A DNA stretch of 64,000 bases from an uncultured virus (IMG/VR IMGVR_UViG_3300021135_000008) (IMGVR_UViG_3300021135_000008); one strand, 5' to 3'; shown: positions 4,428 to 64,000, counted from the stretch's first letter. Made by a program: numbers and translations. Notes: a model not told the origin generated them from the letters alone.

Positions 4428-4577
4428 TGCAACCATTTCTGTTTCGAGGCTGGTTGCCCACCCAAGAGATTAAGCCGCTAGGCGCATCTCAAGAAGTGAA
4501 TTATCGTTTGCAGATAACTTATTTATGCTTCTGTCTCGGTCCGCCTTTAACACACCTGTCGATCCTATTTCCGGCCC
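4428..4577 (-). ncRNA. ssrA: tmRNA coding piece of a two-piece permuted tmRNA; tag (A)ANDNSLLEMRLAA at 4470-4511; 3' end approximate
   Basis: Begins GGGCCGGAAATAGGATCGAC; resume frame GCA AAC GAT AAT ... CTA GCG GCT TAA. Confidence 0.92.
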
Positions 4578-4589
4578 AACATAAGAACT

Positions 4590-5036
4590 TCAAGCTTTTT
4601 TGACATGAAAGTTAAGTCCAGGATTCTTAGACTTTCTTCCTTGTCCACGTACCCATCCTTCTGGTGGATTTTGATCTGATTTTATACAACATTTTTCAAT
4701 GGGATTATTAGGATTGTGATACCAGATACTTCCTCCAGTACCAACTGGCTTCCAGTTTCCACCATTTTTAACGCGCCGATATTTCATACCTTTGCGTTTT
4801 ATATTGGCAGCAGCTGCTCCTCTTTTACCAGCTTCACTTAACATTTCTTTAACTAATTCTTCTTGAGTAAGAAGACCAGCTAAACCTTGCCAAGCTAATT
4901 TATCTTCCCATCTTCCATGTTGTTCCCAAAGTATCCTGTGAGCCTCAGCATGTTCTTCAACTGTTAACTCAATCAGATTCTCCGGATCATCAGTTCCACC
5001 CAAATGTTTGGGTATTATATGATGTATATGTTTCAT
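4590..5036 (-). CDS. HNH homing endonuclease inside the tmRNA intervening segment
   Basis: HIHHIIPKHLGGTDDPENLIELTVEEHAEAH; AT-rich; GGAGG RBS; own TATAAATA at 5055-5062. Confidence 0.88.
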   Translation of the reverse strand: MKHIHHIIPKHLGGTDDPENLIELTVEEHAEAHRILWEQHGRWEDKLAWQGLAGLLTQEELVKEMLSEAGKRGAAAANIKRKGMKYRRVKNGGNWKPVGTGGSIWYHNPNNPIEKCCIKSDQNPPEGWVRGQGRKSKNPGLNFHVKKA

Positions 5037-5091
5037 TTGAACCTCCATCGATCCTATTTATATTAGGATCGACTTAAGCTCAAAGTTCTTA

Positions 5092-5160
5092 TGGTGGACC
5101 GGGCGGGTACCGCCCCCGCGTCCAGAATGTCTATTTCGCTTTCGTCATCGACATCAGCAT
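5092..5160 (-). ncRNA. ssrA: tmRNA acceptor piece; 5' end approximate
   Basis: ...GACGCGGGGGCGGTACCCGCCCGGTCCACCA; CCGGTCC pairs with GGGCCGG of the coding piece, including the G3:U70 Ala determinant. Confidence 0.92.
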
Positions 5161-5164
5161 ATAT

Positions 5165-5195
5165 TATTTATATCACGACTTGCTATTTTTGTCAA
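5165..5195 (-). promoter_or_regulatory. Overlapping sigma70-type and T4 late promoters for tmRNA
   Basis: TTGACA-N17-TATAAA, where the -10 is part of TATAAATA. Confidence 0.8.
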
Positions 5196-32470: not shown

Positions 32471-33951
32471 CTCTTTAACGGGATCTTTCCAGATAGGATC
32501 CCAGACTTGATCTTGCTCTTGATGTTGTTTGACTCGTCACGGCTGAACATCGGTCCTAGGTGACGATGGAACTCTTTCTCTGCAGCATCGCCGTCCTCGT
32601 TGGCAGCAGCCCTCATCTTGGTGCCGCTCATGCCGTGTGTCCTCTCGGTGTCTTCGGGATAGTGGATGTGGATCTCATCAAACTTGCGACCCTCCATCTC
32701 CTTGATCTTACCCTGCTCGAGCGACCTCTTGAGACCCTCGGCGAAGGATGCCCTGTCCTTGCCTACCAGTATATGTAGGATCTTTCTTCCAGGACCGGTC
32801 ATCGAGTCGTGGGCTCTCCTGATCGTCTCGCCTGCGCCGCTGACGATGTGGATATGGTTGTTGTCGGTGTCGCCCCACTGTCTACCGAGGATCGACTTTC
32901 TCTCTTCAGGAGTAAACGCGTCAGCCTTAGATGAGATGCCGATGTGCTTTGATCCAGGAAGCTTCTTCAAAGCCCCTCCGAGGTCCTGTGCGTGGCCCAT
33001 GTGGGAGATAGGGCTGAACCCTACCATAGGGATGGCCGAGGCGTGCTGGTCACCCATGCTCTCCTCGCTGACGGCGTCCTTGACGTCTAGTTCTTTTCTA
33101 AGAAGGGCGAGCGCGGCTGCGTGGTCCGTACCCTTCATCTTGCTGACGCTGTCCCTGAACTTCTCGTAGATGGCCTGATGCTGTTCTTTAGGGATGTGCT
33201 TCTTGATGAGCTGGGTTACTCCGTGGAACGAGGTAACCTGATTCGGATCGGCCTTGTCGCCGAACAGACCTTTGGTGACTTGATCGGGCTCCTTGACTCC
33301 CATGTCTGAGTCGTCAGTCCTAGACCTGAGTCCGTGGCTGATCGAGAACTTATGATGGTCGAGACCGACGGCGTTCAGGAGCACCTTGTGGTGCAGACCC
33401 TTGATGCCTGCCTTGGTGTCTTCCCATGATGAGTTGTGGAGGAGCTGCTCGCCAGGAGTAGGCTCGTCGTTGTTGTAGTGAACAGGCTCGAAGTCGATCT
33501 GGTGATGCTCACCGTTCTCGTGTCTCAGAACTGCCGAGACCTCGGTGCCGTGCTTCCTCGTGCCGACTACGGTGTACTTACCGAACTTGCGTCCAGGAGT
33601 CAGGTGTGCGACAAGCTTATCCTTATGCTCTGCTGGGAACTGAGCGTCGATGTCACCGACGGTAGGCTTGTGCTTCTTGAACTCTTCGTCGGAAATACTG
33701 GAGTCCATGAACTGGTTAGTAGAGCCGGCAAACATTGACCCAGAAGTAAGGGCCTTCTTACCCTTGCCAAAGAGTGGCTGACCGTGCTCTTTCTCGAAGG
33801 AGTCGTGGATCTCACCGAGTGCGTCTCTGACGTCTCCAGCCTGCTGTGACCTGTTCTTTACCCTGAACGGCGCAGCGGCGACTTCTCCTTCAGGAGTCTT
33901 GATCTTGATGTTGCCGCCTTCTTTGAGTATGAAGTTCTTAAATGAGATCAT
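32467..33951 (-). CDS. Pol-beta-type nucleotidyltransferase fused to a HIGH-type (cytidylyltransferase-like) domain
   Basis: MISFKNFILKE; AGS..GDIDA..QIDF; HMGH..VGKDR..MSGTKMR. Confidence 0.75.
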   Translation of the reverse strand: MISFKNFILKEGGNIKIKTPEGEVAAAPFRVKNRSQQAGDVRDALGEIHDSFEKEHGQPLFGKGKKALTSGSMFAGSTNQFMDSSISDEEFKKHKPTVGDIDAQFPAEHKDKLVAHLTPGRKFGKYTVVGTRKHGTEVSAVLRHENGEHHQIDFEPVHYNNDEPTPGEQLLHNSSWEDTKAGIKGLHHKVLLNAVGLDHHKFSISHGLRSRTDDSDMGVKEPDQVTKGLFGDKADPNQVTSFHGVTQLIKKHIPKEQHQAIYEKFRDSVSKMKGTDHAAALALLRKELDVKDAVSEESMGDQHASAIPMVGFSPISHMGHAQDLGGALKKLPGSKHIGISSKADAFTPEERKSILGRQWGDTDNNHIHIVSGAGETIRRAHDSMTGPGRKILHILVGKDRASFAEGLKRSLEQGKIKEMEGRKFDEIHIHYPEDTERTHGMSGTKMRAAANEDGDAAEKEFHRHLGPMFSRDESNNIKSKIKSGILSGKIPLKR

Positions 33952-34895
33952 TGCTTTGGTGTCCTTGACTTGAACTTCAGGGCGTTCTCAGGGTCAGCCT
34001 TGTACTCCCTGAACGCGTCCGATGTGACCTTGAACCTCGGTGCTGTCGAGCCCTTAGGCGGGTGGACTACGATACCTTCGGATCCTGAACCCCACTTAGG
34101 AGAGAAGCCGCGAGACTTGATGTGAGCGTCGACCTTGTCGGATACCCTCTTCTTGATCTCCATCAGCTTCTGAGTCTCGGCTTCCTTGGCTGCCTTGTTC
34201 GTGGGGGTGGTCCTTGATGAGAGGAGCTCCCTGTTCACGCCCTCAAGGTCCTTGGCTTCCTTGGCGACGTCGACCTCGCTGGGTGAGAAGCCGTTGATGT
34301 TGTCGTCGTCGAAGTTGAGTCCCGGCGTAGACAGCTCGTTCTTGAACTTCTCGACGTCGTGGCCTTGGTTCTCTGGAAGCTTGGTATGGATGACAAACTT
34401 GCCGACGCTGCCCATGTGGCTAGGGTCGTAGGACGTTCCGACGAACTTGATCTCGCCTGGAGTCTCTGACGGTCTGGATAGTCTCTTTGAGAACAGCTCA
34501 CCGCGGACCTTGGTCTCGCCGCCGGACTCTTGGGCCCTCTGCTTTAGGTGATCTGTAAGTCTCTTGTTGGCCTGCATCTGTGCATGGGCCTCGGCAAACG
34601 CGTTAGCAGCGGTCAAGTCGAGAGGCTTACCCGTCTGCTCAGCTCGTCTCTTGGCTCTATCGATGTAGTCGGCTGGCTCCCTCATCCTCTCGTCACCAGA
34701 ACCGGAACTCTGTGTATAGAACCCGTGCTCGTCGTGTCCCATCATCATGGTAGAGCCGTCGGTCTTCTCAGTCGCCTGATCGATCCTGACTTTTCCACCC
34801 TGAACCAGATCGCTTATCTGGTTATGGTCCATGGTAGTGATGTGTGGAAGGCCTTGTCTTATACCCTCAGTGATAAAGCTCTTAAAAGACTTCAT
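33948..34895 (-). CDS. ATP-dependent RNA-ligase-like protein (DUF6267-like)
   Basis: MKSFKSFITE; TEKTDG, RGEL, EGIVV, RFKV. Confidence 0.72.
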   Translation of the reverse strand: MKSFKSFITEGIRQGLPHITTMDHNQISDLVQGGKVRIDQATEKTDGSTMMMGHDEHGFYTQSSGSGDERMREPADYIDRAKRRAEQTGKPLDLTAANAFAEAHAQMQANKRLTDHLKQRAQESGGETKVRGELFSKRLSRPSETPGEIKFVGTSYDPSHMGSVGKFVIHTKLPENQGHDVEKFKNELSTPGLNFDDDNINGFSPSEVDVAKEAKDLEGVNRELLSSRTTPTNKAAKEAETQKLMEIKKRVSDKVDAHIKSRGFSPKWGSGSEGIVVHPPKGSTAPRFKVTSDAFREYKADPENALKFKSRTPKQ

Positions 34896-34941: not shown

Positions 34942-34971
34942 AAAAAAGGGAAGCCCTCTCGAGCTTCCCTT
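34942..34971 (-). terminator. Intrinsic terminator
   Basis: AAGGGAAGCTC-GAGA-GGGCTTCCCTTTTTT. Confidence 0.85.
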
Positions 34972-35099
34972 ACTTTACAACGCGGACAGGAGGAACCCCA
35001 CCTACCTAGAAGGCGACCTGTCAATTCCAATCCTTACGGCTTGCCACTTGTGCTGCAGACACAAACACGTCGAGATGATCAAAAAATATAATCATGAAG

Positions 35100-35315
35100 T
35101 TATTTATACGAGTCTCTCGTATTTTCTAGCTCGTCTACATTTATTTTTTGCAAAATAAAGAAGGGAGTCCAGCCATCGAACCCTCCACCCATGTTGAGGA
35201 ACCTAGCATAGTTCTTTGCATCCTTTTGATTAGTAAAGTCAGATAAGATGCACTCAGTCCTCTTCTCGAGTACGGAGAACTTACGGTCGTTCCACTTGAC
35301 TACTTCGCAGTTCAT
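35100..35315 (-). CDS. Conserved small T4-like protein
   Basis: ARFLNMGGGFDGWTPFF; directly downstream of gp41. Confidence 0.75.
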   Translation of the reverse strand: MNCEVVKWNDRKFSVLEKRTECILSDFTNQKDAKNYARFLNMGGGFDGWTPFFILQKINVDELENTRDSYK

Positions 35316-59989: not shown

Positions 59990-60062
59990 TGCGGGGTAGT
60001 GGAAAAGTGCCACGCTAGCCTCATAAGCTAGAGAACTGGAGCGTCACCAGCGACCGCAACCA
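59990..60062 (+). tRNA. Divergent tRNA(CAT), Met-like
   Basis: CTAGC-CTCATAA-GCTAG arm, CCA end; mismatched acceptor stem and atypical T-loop. Confidence 0.6.
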
Positions 60063-60082
60063 AATTTACTGGAGACTTTGCT

Positions 60083-60490
60083 ATGAAGATCGGTTTCACC
60101 TGTAGTACGTTTGACCTGTTACATGCCGGACACGTGGCTATGCTGCGTGAGTGCAAGGAGAACAGTGACTGGCTGATCGTAGGTCTCCAGACAGATCCCA
60201 CTATAGATCGACCCGACACGAAGAACAAGCCGGCACAAAGTGTGTACGAGCGGTTCGTTCAGCTTCATGGCTGTAAGTTTGTCGACGAGATCGTTCCCTA
60301 CTCTACCGAGAAGGACTTGATGGACATGCTGGCCACCATCCCGATGAACGTCAGGTTCGTGGGTGAGGAGTACCGTCCGGTCGAGTTTACTGGTAAGCAG
60401 TACTGCCTCGACAACGGCATCGAGATCTTCTACAACCAGCGCAGGCACGGTTGGTCGACGACTGAGCTTCGCAAGCGAGCAAAGATATGA
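60083..60490 (+). CDS. Glycerol-3-phosphate cytidylyltransferase-like (TagD family)
   Basis: FDLLHAGH..RRHGWSTT. Confidence 0.88.
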   Translation: MKIGFTCSTFDLLHAGHVAMLRECKENSDWLIVGLQTDPTIDRPDTKNKPAQSVYERFVQLHGCKFVDEIVPYSTEKDLMDMLATIPMNVRFVGEEYRPVEFTGKQYCLDNGIEIFYNQRRHGWSTTELRKRAKI

Positions 60491-61215
60491 TCAAGTATCG
60501 AGCCGTCTTCATCTCCGACGTACACCTCGGGACCAAGATGAGTCGACCCGACTTACTTCTTCAGTTCTTGAAGACGTTCGAGTGTGACCAGCTCTACCTA
60601 GTCGGTGACATCATCGACGGCTGGGCACTCTCTCGGAACTTCTTCTGGCCACAGGAGAACAACGACGTAGTACAGAAGATCTTGAGGCGCGCTAGGAAGA
60701 ACACGCACATCACGTTCATTCCTGGGAACCACGACGAGTTCCTTCGGTCCTTCTGTGATAACCAGTTCGGCAACGTCTCTCTTCTTAAGAACGACGTGTA
60801 CGTGTCTGGTACCGGTAAGAAGTACATAGTGATGCACGGCGACGAGTTCGACGCGGTCATAACCAACGCCAAGTGGCTGAGTCACATGGGCAGCTGGGCA
60901 TACGACCAGTCCATCGCTCTCAACGTCTTGCTGACTAGGATAAGGAACATCTTTGGCCTGCCGTACTGGTCTCTGTCGAAGTGGCTCAAGTACAAGGTCA
61001 AGGAAGCGGTCAACTTCATCGGCAGCTACGAGGAGAACCTATCATCATATGCGAAGGCTAAGTCTGCTGATGGGATCATATGTGGTCATATCCATCATCC
61101 AAATATTCGTAAGGTTGGTGAGATTGACTACATGAACTGCGGTGACTGGGTCGAGAGCTGCACGGCTCTGGTAGAACACATGGATGGTACTTGGGAGATC
61201 ATCTACTGGAAATAA
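60487..61215 (+). CDS. LpxH-like metallophosphoesterase
   Basis: SDVHLG, GDIIDGW, GNHD, HGD, GHIH, NCGDWVE. Confidence 0.88.
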   Translation: MIKYRAVFISDVHLGTKMSRPDLLLQFLKTFECDQLYLVGDIIDGWALSRNFFWPQENNDVVQKILRRARKNTHITFIPGNHDEFLRSFCDNQFGNVSLLKNDVYVSGTGKKYIVMHGDEFDAVITNAKWLSHMGSWAYDQSIALNVLLTRIRNIFGLPYWSLSKWLKYKVKEAVNFIGSYEENLSSYAKAKSADGIICGHIHHPNIRKVGEIDYMNCGDWVESCTALVEHMDGTWEIIYWK

Positions 61216-61225
61216 ATAACAACAC

Positions 61226-61309
61226 GGAGGTATGCGAGCAAGGTGCTCAAAGAGTCTTGAAAACTCTGCCACCGCAAGGTTGATGGTTCGATTCCTTGTA
61301 CCTCCGCCA
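61226..61309 (+). tRNA. tRNA-Ser(TGA)
   Basis: AGAGT-CTTGAAA-ACTCT, long variable arm, GCCA end. Confidence 0.8.
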
Positions 61310-61315
61310 ATTCAC

Positions 61316-61342
61316 GGTCACGTAGCTCAGCTGTATAGAGCA
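61316..61342 (+). repeat. 27-bp duplicate of the 5' end of tRNA-Arg(CCT)
   Basis: GGTCACGTAGCTCAGCTGTATAGAGCA, identical to 61707-61733. Confidence 0.95.
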
Positions 61343-61381
61343 TAGGTATAAATAAACCGATGCTACTGCATAGGAGTTAAT

Positions 61382-61729
61382 ATGCCGAATCAATTTACAA
61401 AAGCTAAACACCTTGGGCTTCCTCAACCAAAAGTATATCATTCTAAATCTTTAGAAGAAGTATTCAAGAAAGATTCTACTTATCTTCCACAAAAACTAAG
61501 ATCTAGGTTTCTAAAAGAGAATTTAGTTCCGTATGAATGTACAGAATGTGGTAACACTGGTGAATGGAATAACAAGCCTTTAGTTTTACAGTTAGATCAT
61601 ATTAACGGAGTAAATACGGATAATAGGATTGAAAATCTTAGATGGCTTTGTCCGTCTTGCCATACACAACAACCAACGTATGGTAAAAAGAACTACACAT
61701 ATCAGAGGTCACGTAGCTCAGCTGTATAG
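61382..61729 (+). CDS. HNH endonuclease
   Basis: CTECG..LQLDHINGVNTDNRIENLRWLCPSCH; TATAAATA at 61347-61354; AT-rich. Confidence 0.92.
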   Translation: MPNQFTKAKHLGLPQPKVYHSKSLEEVFKKDSTYLPQKLRSRFLKENLVPYECTECGNTGEWNNKPLVLQLDHINGVNTDNRIENLRWLCPSCHTQQPTYGKKNYTYQRSRSSAV

Positions 61730-61783
61730 AGCACGAATTTCCTAAATTCGGGGTCGCAGGTTAGAGTCCTGCCGTGATCACCA
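61707..61783 (+). tRNA. tRNA-Arg(CCT)
   Basis: CGAAT-TTCCTAA-ATTCG; CCA end. Confidence 0.92.
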
Positions 61784-61788
61784 ACGAC

Positions 61789-61863
61789 GGTCCGATGGCG
61801 CAGCGGTAGCGCAGCTCCTTTACACGGAGAAGGTCGGGGGTTCGATCCCCTCTCGGACTACCA
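61789..61863 (+). tRNA. tRNA-Val(TAC)
   Basis: CTCC-TTTACAC-GGAG; GGTTCGATCCC; CCA. Confidence 0.93.
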
Positions 61864-62092
61864 ACAACTGAGGATATAAGATGAAGCTTATCGAATACAA
61901 AGACAAGTTCGTTACTGAGCCGTTCTGGCTCTGGGTAAACGACAAGGACAAGGCACTCTCTCCCTCTTTCTCTTCTCAGAAGAAGGCCGAGAAGTGGATG
62001 GACCGCATCCTCCTCGAGATCAGGAAGAAGGTCAAGAGGGGTTGACAAATAATCCAACCTGTGGTATGATATATCATAATGAGGATTTAGCC

Positions 62093-62497
62093 ATGTCAAT
62101 GCACCTAGCACCAGTCTACTTCACGACCACCGGCTCGACCAAGCGCAAGCCGTCCAAGAGCAAGAAGCTCGCTGAGTCTACCGCCAAGCATGAGCAGTGG
62201 CTGCGCGACCGCGGCCTGCATCCCGAGCAGCGTAACCTGCAGCGAGCATTCAAGGGCAAGCACAGTATCGCCCTGCCTGACCTGCGAGTCGAGACCAAGT
62301 ACGAGCTGTCCAACGGCATCGGCAACGGCTTCAAGCGCGGCATCATGGAGAACCTACACAAGGAGTCGCCTGAGGTTCAGAAGGCTATCCTTGAGAAGGC
62401 TCAGCGTACCACGGTAGCCTATAACAAGGGACCTATACAATATTTTAGTCCCGAGTCAGACAAGACGAGCCTCGGCTCGGGATCGCGGAGGGGATGA
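62093..62497 (+). CDS. Conserved basic hypothetical protein
   Basis: MSMHL..AYNKGPIQY; promoter at about 62042. Confidence 0.75.
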   Translation: MSMHLAPVYFTTTGSTKRKPSKSKKLAESTAKHEQWLRDRGLHPEQRNLQRAFKGKHSIALPDLRVETKYELSNGIGNGFKRGIMENLHKESPEVQKAILEKAQRTTVAYNKGPIQYFSPESDKTSLGSGSRRG

Positions 62498-62691
62498 TGG
62501 ACTACGTCGACATTCAAGCGTGTGACCCTACGGGCATCTGGCGTACGTACAGCAACACCCCAGCTGGTAACTCACAGCGTATCCGTCAGCTCATGCAGGA
62601 GCTCAAGGGCTCTAAGAACTGGCAGGTGCGTGCAGTGGATAAAAAAGGAAATATCGTCGACTTTTTATGTTGATGCTGTATAAATAAAACT

Positions 62692-62799
62692 ATGAACAAG
62701 ACAGTTAAACATCCTCTTCCCTATAATATGCCGAGCGCGTTCTGCGTCATTGCCCAGACATGGGATAATGGTCGCGAACCAACGCGAGGGCGATCTTGA
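62692..62799 (+). CDS. Putative attenuator leader peptide, 35 aa, containing all 20 amino acids
   Basis: MNKTVKHPLPYNMPSAFCVIAQTWDNGREPTRGRS; ATG 5 nt after TATAAATA (62679-62686). Confidence 0.65.
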   Translation: MNKTVKHPLPYNMPSAFCVIAQTWDNGREPTRGRS

Positions 62800-62824
62800 A
62801 TATCTGACTCAGAAGAGTAAGTTC

Positions 62825-62867
62825 AAGGGGCGCCCACAGTAAAGAGTGAGGCGCCCCTTCTCTTTTT
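62825..62867 (+). terminator. Intrinsic terminator with overlapping antiterminator
   Basis: AAGGGGCGCC...GGCGCCCCTT-CTCTTTTT. Confidence 0.8.
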
Positions 62868-62939
62868 AGTTGACAAATAACTCAGACTATGGTACTATCT
62901 TAATATAATCTGAGTGGCTGATTGACATTGTTAAACGAA

Positions 62940-63388
62940 AGACAACTTCGGTTGTCTCTCCATGGATACACCAGTGGCCGTCCGTGTCTTAAAGTACGGC
63001 GTAATCACGTGTGACACCAATCTGGTGTATCCTTGTAGAGACAATTGTTGTCTCTCCACAGATACTACACGGGGTACCGTGCATGGACGCATGCACTATG
63101 GATGATAGGGCCATCTTGCCATCCTGAGACAACCCGATCAATGGCTAAGGAAGGGAAGCACCCGACTCCGAAATTCGATTCTATGTAGTATCTTTGCAGA
63201 GACAATGGAATTTGGACGGTACTGGCCAGCGCGCTGGTATCTGTGTCCTCTGGCAGGGACACGAACGAGGGATGCCAGTCCCACTAGTAGCCAAACAACT
63301 AATCGTGGCAGCGTGGCACTGCCGGTGAAGCACCTACGGAGATGGTAGGAATGCGGTTGATCATCGATCATCAAACAGAACAAATGCC
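62940..63388 (+). ncRNA. Candidate structured ncRNA(s) upstream of the tRNA cluster
   Basis: No credible ORF; long closing stems, repeated TTGTCTCT/AGAGACAA, complementary hairpin loops; sigma70-type promoter at 62870. Confidence 0.65.
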
Positions 63389-63397
63389 AACTAATTC

Positions 63398-63473
63398 GAT
63401 CACTTAGCTCATTAGGTAGAGCAGCGGTCTTTTAAGCCGTAGGTGCTGGGTTCGAGTCCCAGAGTGATCACCA
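63398..63473 (+). tRNA. tRNA-Lys(TTT)
   Basis: GCGGT-CTTTTAA-GCCGT; CCA. Confidence 0.95.
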
Positions 63474-63482
63474 ATAGATAAC

Positions 63483-63557
63483 GCATCCTTAGCTTAGCGG
63501 TAGAGCGCTACGTTGACATCGTAGAGGTCGTAGGTTCAATCCCTGCAGGATGCACCA
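63483..63557 (+). tRNA. tRNA-Val(GAC)
   Basis: CTACG-TTGACAT-CGTAG; CCA. Confidence 0.95.
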
Positions 63558-63685
63558 AGTTTGTATGAGACGATTCGAGTACTCGACTGCCAATTCGTTG
63601 AACCCAGAATCGAAAGGTGGAAAAGACTCTGGTCTACTATCCTCGTCGTGCCACCTTAACATCATACGATGATATTTATGAATAA

Positions 63686-63762
63686 GCGGCGTTCTTCTAA
63701 TGGAATAGGAATCCTCCCTTTCAAGGAGTTCAATATCGGTTCGAGTCCGATACGCCGCGCCA
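63686..63762 (+). tRNA. tRNA-Glu(TTC)
   Basis: CTCC-CTTTCAA-GGAG; CCA. Confidence 0.92.
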
Positions 63763-63768
63763 GTATAA

Positions 63769-63843
63769 CAGGGTGTAGCTCAATGGTAGAGTGCTGTGTT
63801 TGGAACGCAGATGCTGGAGGTTCGAGTCCTCTCACCCTGACCA
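63769..63843 (+). tRNA. tRNA-Pro(TGG)
   Basis: CTGTG-TTTGGAA-CGCAG; CCA. Confidence 0.93.
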
Positions 63844-63849
63844 ATACCC

Positions 63850-63925
63850 GCTCCCATCATCTAGCGGCTTAGGATACCCGCCTCTCACGCGGATCACACC
63901 GGTTCGAATCCGGTTGGGAGCACCA
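63850..63925 (+). tRNA. tRNA-Glu(CTC)
   Basis: CCGC-CTCTCAC-GCGG; CCA. Confidence 0.93.
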
Positions 63926-64000
63926 ATCTTTCTAGTTGACAAATAATCTAAACTATGGTAGTATTAGATAGTGGGAAGAGCCCACGGATTAAATCGTAAT

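Follow-up and report, generated by a model that had tools for sequence, protein, structure and literature searches.

We found a conserved RNA switch in front of a tRNA gene cluster in an uncultured T4-like freshwater phage, and the cassette that carries it is a probable translation-sensing attenuator. The DNA that we analysed, which we call the window, is a stretch of 64,000 nt (IMGVR_UViG_3300021135_000008), and the cassette lies close to its end. Judging from the arrangement of its parts, we lean, with modest confidence, towards an intrinsic terminator gated by ribosomes on a leader ORF and placed between a T4-type late promoter and a unit of non-coding RNA (ncRNA) and tRNA genes. The tiny gene and its terminator would then probably tie late transcription of the tRNAs to the performance of the ribosomes. 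If this is true, these phages have a built-in sensor of translation failure, and leader-peptide attenuation extends from amino-acid and resistance genes to viral RNA genes. To our knowledge, next to nothing has been established about how phage tRNA genes are regulated, and we found no publication on control of this kind in the open-access literature that we searched. At about 190 nt the element is compact and self-contained, which makes it easy to test with reporters.

The original prediction, made from the sequence alone, was of an attenuator that senses every charged tRNA by means of a short ORF containing all 20 amino acids. All of the elements that it described (TATAAATA, the ATG, the ORF, the pairing, the terminator and the promoter at 62870) are present at the positions given below. 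Taken as a whole, its attenuator architecture held up and its idea of full amino-acid coverage did not.

The window contains the replication and nucleotide-metabolism arm of the phage, with a T4-type DNA polymerase, a DnaB-like helicase and a ribonucleotide reductase among its gene products, and the sequencing runs carrying its DNA are freshwater metagenomes, with no RNA run among the 24 listed. We found no DNA match to the window in a phage GenBank collection with either near or distant search modes. In the same collection, the 59-residue protein next to the cassette had no protein match, and a 136-residue neighbor had a sole match in Caulobacter phage Cr30 (43% identity, without synteny), which makes Cr30 the closest named relative through that one neighboring protein. 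Uncultured relatives were reached through the upstream gene and through conserved words of the downstream ncRNA. One record (G001) is the same phage as the window at 100% identity and added no information, and another (G002) is a 150.6-kb relative that is 91% complete.

All of the features described here are on the plus strand. A 59-codon ORF with no assigned function (62494-62673) has its stop 19 nt before the ATG of the short ORF. The entire cassette (62674-62868) is an insertion/deletion unit of about 195 bp with an identical 5-nt word at both ends; it is present in L005 and absent from L006 and L007, where the homologue of the 59-codon ORF directly abuts the sigma70-like promoter. It contains the T4-type late promoter motif TATAAATA (62679-62686), followed after 5 nt by the ATG of the putative leader or sensor ORF of 35 codons (62692-62799, with TGA at 62797-62799). 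A hairpin inside the ORF (62730-62792; -29.3 kcal/mol, z -2.6) could be a region 1:2 or a pause hairpin. The antiterminator hairpin, which we call P2 (62788-62835), has a 5' strand made of the last three codons and the stop (62788-62801) and a 3' strand at 62821-62835. It overlaps the intrinsic terminator (62825-62867), which has its stem-loop at 62825-62859 and its T-run at 62860-62867. The sigma70-like promoter of the ncRNA/tRNA unit follows at 62870-62898 (TTGACA, 17 nt, TACTAT and an upstream TG), and at 10/12 of the consensus it bears out the separate sigma70-type promoter that had been proposed there. After it come a conserved, structured ncRNA region (62900-63390), which would be the first part of any read-through transcript, and the first five tRNA genes (63398-63925; Lys-ttt, Val-gac, Glu-ttc, Pro-tgg and Glu-ctc).

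The terminator of the window folds at -24.7 to -25.3 kcal/mol (z -5.1), and 0/200 shuffles were as good. Its arms (62825-62834 and 62850-62859) form 10 perfect pairs and another 3 past a one-base bulge, and 6 of the 8 positions in the T-run are T. For the RNA that exists up to the point where the 3' arm of the terminator is transcribed, P2 is the fold of lowest energy. On its own it folds at -21.4 kcal/mol, with a z of -4.4 (0/200 shuffles) or -3.5 (1/300), and it takes 9 of the 13 nucleotides of the terminator arm. We looked for pairing between arm and stop region at the eight terminator-like hairpins of the window and found it at this one, where the paired fraction is 0.70 compared to 0.00-0.12 for the other seven. 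The RNA switch in the window is beyond chance. The whole transcript also folds better than shuffles (z -3.8). As a conserved region 1:2, the ORF-internal hairpin is not consistently better than shuffles: the folding z of the ORF body is below -1.8 in only 4/11 cassettes. The stretch 62730-62792 is identical in the 92% relative described below.

From these structures we propose the following order of events. Late RNA polymerase would start at or beside the ATG. As the RNA emerges, 62788-62801 would pair with 62821-62835 and remove the base of the terminator stem, so that with the ribosome absent or lagging, transcription would by default continue into the ncRNA and the tRNA genes. Once a ribosome has come to the end of the 35-codon ORF, it would cover the 5' strand of P2, which would allow the terminator to form, and the late transcript would then end at about 62867. 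Because the position of the ribosome would set the fold, read-through would report slow, stalled or absent translation of the ORF. The 5' strand of P2 begins 9 nt before the stop, and from the known size of the ribosome footprint we estimate that this strand would stay free if the ribosome stalls at a distance of more than about 9 codons upstream. We infer that the ORF is translated and that ribosome position decides between the two folds; tRNA shortage may be the natural signal.

We checked whether TATAAATA should be read as a T4-type late promoter, and this reading stands because the motif is enriched and relatives have gp55 homologues. There are 8 sites in the window against 0.59 expected (0/100 shuffles reach 8), as the original prediction of a late promoter would have it, and 17 in G002, many of them ahead of genes led by a Shine-Dalgarno (SD) sequence. 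Using as the query the Cr30 protein whose annotation is T4 gp55, the late sigma factor, we found homologues in 3/4 related records searched (E 1e-31 to 1e-34), the fourth record being a 24%-complete fragment. The motif, exact or with 1-2 mismatches, precedes the ORF in 11/11 cassettes of the family described below.

The spacing of 5 nt between TATAAATA and the ATG is in keeping with a T4 late start site, and the ATG at 62692 has no SD-like run ahead of it. This had been described as leaderless geometry, and the ATG is indeed 5 nt past the motif, but an ATG in that place is a general habit of these sites: it is found 3-6 nt past TATAAATA at 7/8 sites in the window and 8/17 in G002. The frames opened by most of these ATGs are only 4-24 codons long, and one in the window begins an RNA gene with no ORF: a permuted tmRNA gene (Rfam RF04321; 57 bits, threshold 47), which thus also has a late promoter in front of it, follows at a distance of 13 nt. 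Since ATGs are common next to the motif and one of them belongs to a tmRNA, an ATG there is a habit of the promoter and no stand-alone proof of a leaderless gene. In 6/11 cassettes, 3-8 nt separate the promoter motif and the ATG, and where the ATG is 22-47 nt away (L029, L075 and L055) it has a purine-rich SD-like run ahead of it.

The sigma70-like promoter right after the terminator is kept in relatives and has a near copy at 63936-63964; most cassettes of the family are followed by such a promoter with the TTGACA word. Another sigma70-like promoter, with 11/12 consensus matches, is upstream at 62042. Read-through is not required for tRNA expression, because a strong sigma70-like promoter adjoins the terminator and another is found 1 kb further on. 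It could also reach only part of the tRNA array. We suggest that read-through would still contribute appreciably to the supply of tRNA in addition to the promoters of the cluster itself.

The size of the array can be seen in G002, which has 29 tRNA genes for 19 amino acids plus a permuted tmRNA. Downstream of the cassette and on the same strand, 24 of these tRNA genes (19 amino acids) are spread over about 14 kb, interspersed with ORFs and further promoters. We did not find tRNA-His in this 91%-complete contig. Matching the codons of the short ORF to the phage's own tRNAs was uninformative by inspection, as 29 tRNA genes read most codons. The ncRNA region (62900-63390) had no Rfam match at E up to 1, and its conserved words were found in 15, 26, 16 and 29 stretches of public phage and metagenome DNA.

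In uncultured phages, we found 11 sequence-distinct cassettes in about 8 subgroups, all upstream of the same promoter and ncRNA (the window, L041, L042, L037, L040, L029, L051, L075, L045, L055 and L061). Every cassette has TATAAATA or a variant of it, an ORF with a length of 26-42 codons, and a terminator. A hairpin is on the stop region in 11/11, and the distance from the stop to the terminator is 28-37 nt. In the 10 cassettes that were folded from the start of the ORF, P2 is part of the lowest-energy structure that the RNA has ahead of transcription of the 3' arm, with 3-9 nt of the terminator's 5' arm taken up. Across the family, P2 has energies of -16.9 to -25.2 kcal/mol (z -1.7 to -10), and the terminators have -13.5 to -24.7 kcal/mol, with a hairpin and a T-run in all of them. 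Sequestration of the arm by the stop region beats shuffles in 7/11 cassettes (at most 12/200 reach it) and is not significant in L040 (24/200), L037 (77), L045 (83) and L055 (146), with a small overlap in the last three. In several full-length folds, a shortened P2 coexists with the terminator.

The tails of the 11 cassettes aligned too poorly in MAFFT for covariation to be scored column by column, so we used folds of each sequence and swapped partners between cassettes, which was possible because the terminator sequences of the subgroups are unrelated. Matched duplexes of stop region and terminator average -19.0 kcal/mol, and 5/20,000 partner permutations over the 8 subgroups were as good. 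L029 and L051 are set apart by a three-way compensatory change, one step each at the end of the ORF and in the two terminator arms, and both pairings are kept. Both structures exist, and they compete in a conserved way in which each stop region is matched to the terminator of its own cassette. The claim that an antiterminator over the stop excludes the terminator thus agrees with all 11 cassettes and with the permutations.

The closest relative (L005/L041) is 92.5% identical over 478 nt and has kept the cassette. All 6 of the differences within the ORF are confined to codons 1-13 (by a rough count, 4 are synonymous and 2 non-synonymous), and there are only 3 changes in 62729-62867. L006 and L007, whose upstream protein is 75% identical, are missing the whole 195-bp cassette and have kept the tRNA cluster, and other relatives too have the promoter, ncRNA and tRNAs without a cassette. 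The cassette is therefore dispensable for having or expressing the tRNA cluster. Where it is present it travels with the downstream unit, since the upstream gene is a different one in L040, L029 and L075.

The short ORF is likely to be translated, because its frame is open throughout the family and SD-like runs are found where there is a leader. We counted 0 in-frame stops in the 370 codons of the 11 ORFs, compared to 19 and 30 in the other two frames (359 codons each). The peptide of the 35-codon ORF had no Pfam or PHROG match. Identity between subgroups is 13-30%; what the peptides keep is a Trp that never varies, a Pro-Ile/Val-Ala/Val triplet and a His, which is present in 11/11 peptides and aligned in 10. 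The conserved triplet varies at third codon positions. These patterns point to some constraint on the peptide itself. L029 and L051 differ in their ORFs by about 5.5 synonymous to 10.5 non-synonymous changes.

The amino-acid composition of the ORF was the most unusual part of the original prediction. The ORF reaches its 20th amino-acid type at residue 29. Its 31 different codons take in the four for Pro, the two for Lys and the two for Asn. No residue occurs more than 4 times, the 20 types are spread out and there are no tandem regulatory codons. Under an iid null, the chance of finding all 20 types is P = 0.0013 for 35 codons and 9.5e-5 for 29 codons, and full coverage is found in 1/360 ORFs of 25-45 codons in the window. 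However, in the 48,430 stop-free 29-residue stretches of the window, all 20 types are found in 6 overlapping stretches, compared to about 4.6 expected. All six are at one place, the 35-codon ORF, and nowhere else in the window. The calculation that had been proposed as a check thus speaks against the claim: coverage of 20/20 by itself is at chance level, with about one such place expected per 64-kb window.

For the relatives, we used the nine homologues that had not been used to find the family, which have 20/42, 18/35, 19/36, 19/35, 18/29, 18/34, 18/35, 17/26 and 16/28 amino-acid types out of codons. The frame is open in 11/11 copies and the antiterminator pairing recurs, as predicted, but 20-amino-acid coverage is not conserved (16-20 types) and is complete in only 1/9 independent homologues (L042, 20/20 in 42 codons). 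Asp is present in 5/9 homologues, Val in 6/9, Phe in 5/9 and Gln in 5/9. The four Pro codons and the two Lys codons had also been put forward as a feature, and they are already lost in the 92% relative through a Lys-to-Thr change and changes in Pro codons. There is some signal of diversity. The number of types is above the null mean in 9/9 homologues, with Fisher P between 3e-7 and 1e-5 depending on the null, and Cys is present in 8/9 at non-aligned positions compared to 0.24 expected. Much of the raised diversity comes from conserved rare residues, and with the six family-conserved residue types held fixed, Fisher P is 0.004 for the nine homologues and 0.009 for seven subgroups; all of these tests treat related homologues as independent and so overstate their independence. 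The comparison does not support selection for complete 20-amino-acid coverage, though there may be some pressure towards a diverse composition or towards certain rare residues.

A further set of relatives has, at this position, a late promoter, an SD and a gene for an 81-93-residue winged-helix protein (Pfam HTH_39), followed by P2 and a terminator. In these cassettes P2 has a z of -2.8 to -5.9 in 9/9, and sequestration of the arm beats shuffles in 7/9 (at most 2/200 reach it). The outer helix of P2 is 93% paired, compared to 35-60% for slid controls. Covariation in this set is clear in the terminator (0/500 shuffles) and there is little in the outer P2 helix (24/500), part of which could be inherited sequence held in place by the constraints of the protein and the terminator. 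The mini-ORF peptides have no profile similarity to the winged-helix protein (probability 0.1% in a profile-profile comparison), and we rejected the idea that the mini-ORF arose from the winged-helix gene by an internal deletion; between L042 and L095 only the last codons and the switch look common.

An unbiased search with the winged-helix protein gave 66 distinct loci from the best 80 of 358 relatives, and 57 of them had at least 600 nt downstream. We scored a switch where there was a terminator 20-40 nt past the stop with at least half of its arm paired to the stop region. Among these 57 loci from the best 80 of 358, with one locus that has a weak hairpin excluded from the counts, all 21 with a switch have tRNA genes within 1.5 kb, 12 of the 13 with another kind of terminator have no tRNA genes, and 7 of the 22 without a terminator have them; this association is largely the synteny of one clade and not 21 independent events. 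The switch accompanies tRNA genes, not the winged-helix gene as such, and a specially composed ORF is unnecessary. An ORF with all amino acids can thus no longer be held to be a requirement, since the same switch is found on an ordinary gene of 81-93 residues. The ORF of the cassette is conserved and the switch is linked with downstream tRNA genes.

There are other ways of reading the cassette. It could be a small late gene that stands by itself, like a moron, with its own promoter and terminator around a gene for 35 residues; the peptide would then be what counts, the terminator would end both the unit and the upstream operon, and the stop hairpin would be there for mRNA stability or translation termination, or as a by-product. 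We think this is improbable but worth keeping in mind, as the unit is a self-contained indel, a late promoter and terminator in the same slot also flank a real winged-helix gene, the peptides have the His, Pro-Ile-Ala-like and Trp positions in common, and the rough count against the closest relative is 4 synonymous to 2 non-synonymous changes. In addition, the window has a unit of late promoter, 24-codon ORF and terminator at 35108-34946 (-) that has no switch. An autonomous gene would leave unexplained why each stop region matches its own terminator arm, and why this pairing is found at 1/8 window terminators and only where tRNAs follow. The identity of 13-30%, the L029 and L051 changes that are mostly non-synonymous (about 5.5 to 10.5) and a peptide without a known family also argue against it. 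More doubtful is an untranslated small RNA, expressed late and about 175 nt long, that has three hairpins and only by coincidence an open frame. The fold of the whole transcript (z -3.8), the 3' two thirds that are nearly invariant between the window and its relative, and the other TATAAATA-adjacent ATG that starts a tmRNA and no ORF would all fit. We consider this very improbable given that the frame is open in 11/11 diverged copies with 49 stops in the other frames, the stop is always within the 5' half of P2, SD-like runs are present where there is a leader, and third-position variation in the conserved triplet points to a coding constraint.

If the ORF is translated and the switch is real, there is still the question of what the switch responds to. 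The terminator might discriminate between promoters, so that early transcripts, in which the ATG is internal and has no ribosome-binding site, stay untranslated, fold P2 and read through, and leaderless late ones terminate. Its role would then be to keep late transcription out of the tRNA unit, with no sensing of tRNA. The upstream promoter at 62042 could supply such early transcripts, the ATG at 62692 has no SD-like run, the ATG is 3-8 nt from the motif in 6/11 cassettes, and P2 is at least as stable as the terminator in most cassettes, which would make read-through the untranslated default. Nevertheless, L029, L075 and L055 have a long leader and an SD-like run and would be translated from any transcript, and they have the same switch, as does the winged-helix gene with its clear SD. 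We judge promoter discrimination to be unlikely. About as doubtful, and if anything slightly more so, is the strict form of the pan-tRNA sensor, an ORF built with every amino acid and many synonymous codons in which loss of any charged tRNA leads to read-through. The window ORF and L042 do have 20/20 types, the 9/9 homologues are above the null mean (with P 0.004 after fixing the six residue types), Cys recurs in 8/9 at non-aligned positions and the downstream array spans 19 amino acids. Set against this, chance alone would give roughly one ORF of this kind in each window, 1/9 independent homologues is complete and Asp, Val, Phe and Gln are often missing, the four-Pro and two-Lys codon sets are gone in the 92% relative, and the relatedness of the homologues makes the Fisher tests look more independent than they are. 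His is in 11/11 peptides, yet no tRNA-His was found in the 91%-complete relative, and elsewhere the sensed ORF is an ordinary protein gene.

Coming back to the ribosome-gated terminator, it may be part of something larger, although this is tentative and we would not rely on it. T4-like freshwater phages may have a feedback loop on their own translation supply, in which late transcripts pass into the ncRNA and a 24-gene, 19-amino-acid array only when the ribosome on an amino-acid-diverse ORF lags, and loss of host tRNAs (from starvation, heavy late synthesis or anticodon nucleases) raises phage tRNA, with the switch fitted to two unrelated ORFs. Three recent papers describe phage tRNAs that can rescue infection when tRNAs are cut by host defences (eLife 2023, PMC10264068; Nature 2024, PMC11464382; Nat Commun 2024, PMC11555353).

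We also compared the cassette to known attenuators. T-boxes likewise link tRNA status to read-through of a terminator, but a T-box binds the tRNA directly without translation, and we found no T-box or other Rfam cis-regulator in 60000-64000 at E up to 1. In class I attenuators of the trpL, hisL, pheL and thrL type, the position of the ribosome on a leader ORF picks the antiterminator or the terminator. Like them, the cassette has a short ORF upstream of a terminator and an antiterminator with one strand in common with it, and termination is predicted to be favored when a ribosome has come to the last codons. Unlike them, it has no run of codons for one amino acid, and its stop codon is inside the antiterminator strand. 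It also has no consistently supported 1:2 hairpin, so the predicted default without translation is read-through and not termination. Other differences are that a phage late promoter drives the cassette, often with the ATG at the start site, that the genes to be controlled are RNA genes with their own promoter, and that in relatives the sensed ORF is a full gene for an 81-93-residue protein.

Coupling attenuators of the pyrBI type use the distance between RNA polymerase and the first ribosome as their signal, and a close ribosome prevents the terminator. The cassette would also use this distance and no specific ligand, but the sign is opposite, as a ribosome at the stop is predicted to permit the terminator here. 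The bacterial systems vmlR (PMC9226507) and msrD (PMC10314930) are ribosome-mediated attenuators that are triggered by ribosome-bound antibiotics and control resistance factors. They resemble the cassette in having a leader ORF without amino-acid-specific runs and in that the controlled genes aid translation, and an upstream stall lets their antiterminator form, as the geometry of the cassette would also allow; they differ in that the cassette is in a phage and stands before an ncRNA and tRNAs.

The octamer TATAAATA, read as a T4-type late promoter motif, occurs at eight sites in the window (5055, 5165, 30346, 35101, 44725, 59508, 61347 and 62679). At seven of these an ATG lies 3–6 nt 3' of the motif, as it does at 8 of the 17 sites in the 150.6-kb relative, and the frames that such ATGs open are 4–35 codons long. 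The ATG-adjacent class of sites is located in early, replication and tRNA regions, and SD leaders are present where the motif precedes structural-type genes.

One of these sites belongs to a second unit of late promoter, short ORF and terminator at 34946–35108 (-). Its ATG is 5 nt past the promoter and opens a 24-codon ORF, the terminator is strong (-18.2 kcal/mol), and a 315-codon gene (34895..33948) lies downstream. This unit has no pairing between the stop region and the terminator. The stop-overlapping switch of the cassette at 62679 also occurs in one clade of a small winged-helix gene (Pfam HTH_39, 81–93 residues), with tRNA clusters directly downstream; the gene has 358 relatives in IMG/VR, and the loci are L114–L193 and L088–L112.

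Two HNH endonuclease genes sit behind the motif within RNA-gene regions, at 61347–61729 (+) and 4590–5062 (-). At the 61347 site, the promoter-adjacent ATG opens a 6-codon frame that ends 1 nt upstream of the HNH start codon. The region at 4470–5172 (-) matches the Rfam permuted tmRNA (RF04321; score 57 bits, threshold 47), which is apparently interrupted by the HNH ORF (5048..4590), and a copy of TATAAATA is located 13 nt upstream of the tmRNA start. ARAGORN did not call this tmRNA, yet it called the homologue in a relative (L202:16207–16573).

A relative without the cassette (L105, about 1400–1500) retains a 12-nt word coding the conserved Pro-Ile-Ala..Trp stretch of the mini-ORF family, in a different reading frame; this may be a decayed remnant. 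Among the internal residues of the mini-ORF peptides, His is conserved best. In the 91%-complete relative G002 there are 29 tRNA genes covering 19 amino acids, and we did not find a tRNA-His gene.

A conserved structured ncRNA region (62900–63390 (+)), also present at L012:5040–5560, separates the sigma70-like promoter from the first tRNA. An Rfam search of it gave no match at E up to 1. Words conserved in this ncRNA are found across dozens of phage and metagenome contigs, and some copies are directly 3' of tRNA genes. Flanked by tRNA-Val and tRNA-Glu, the stretch at 63563–63671 (-) gives a match to the Rhizobiales sRNA Atu_At1 just below the Rfam threshold (58.7 bits against 60).
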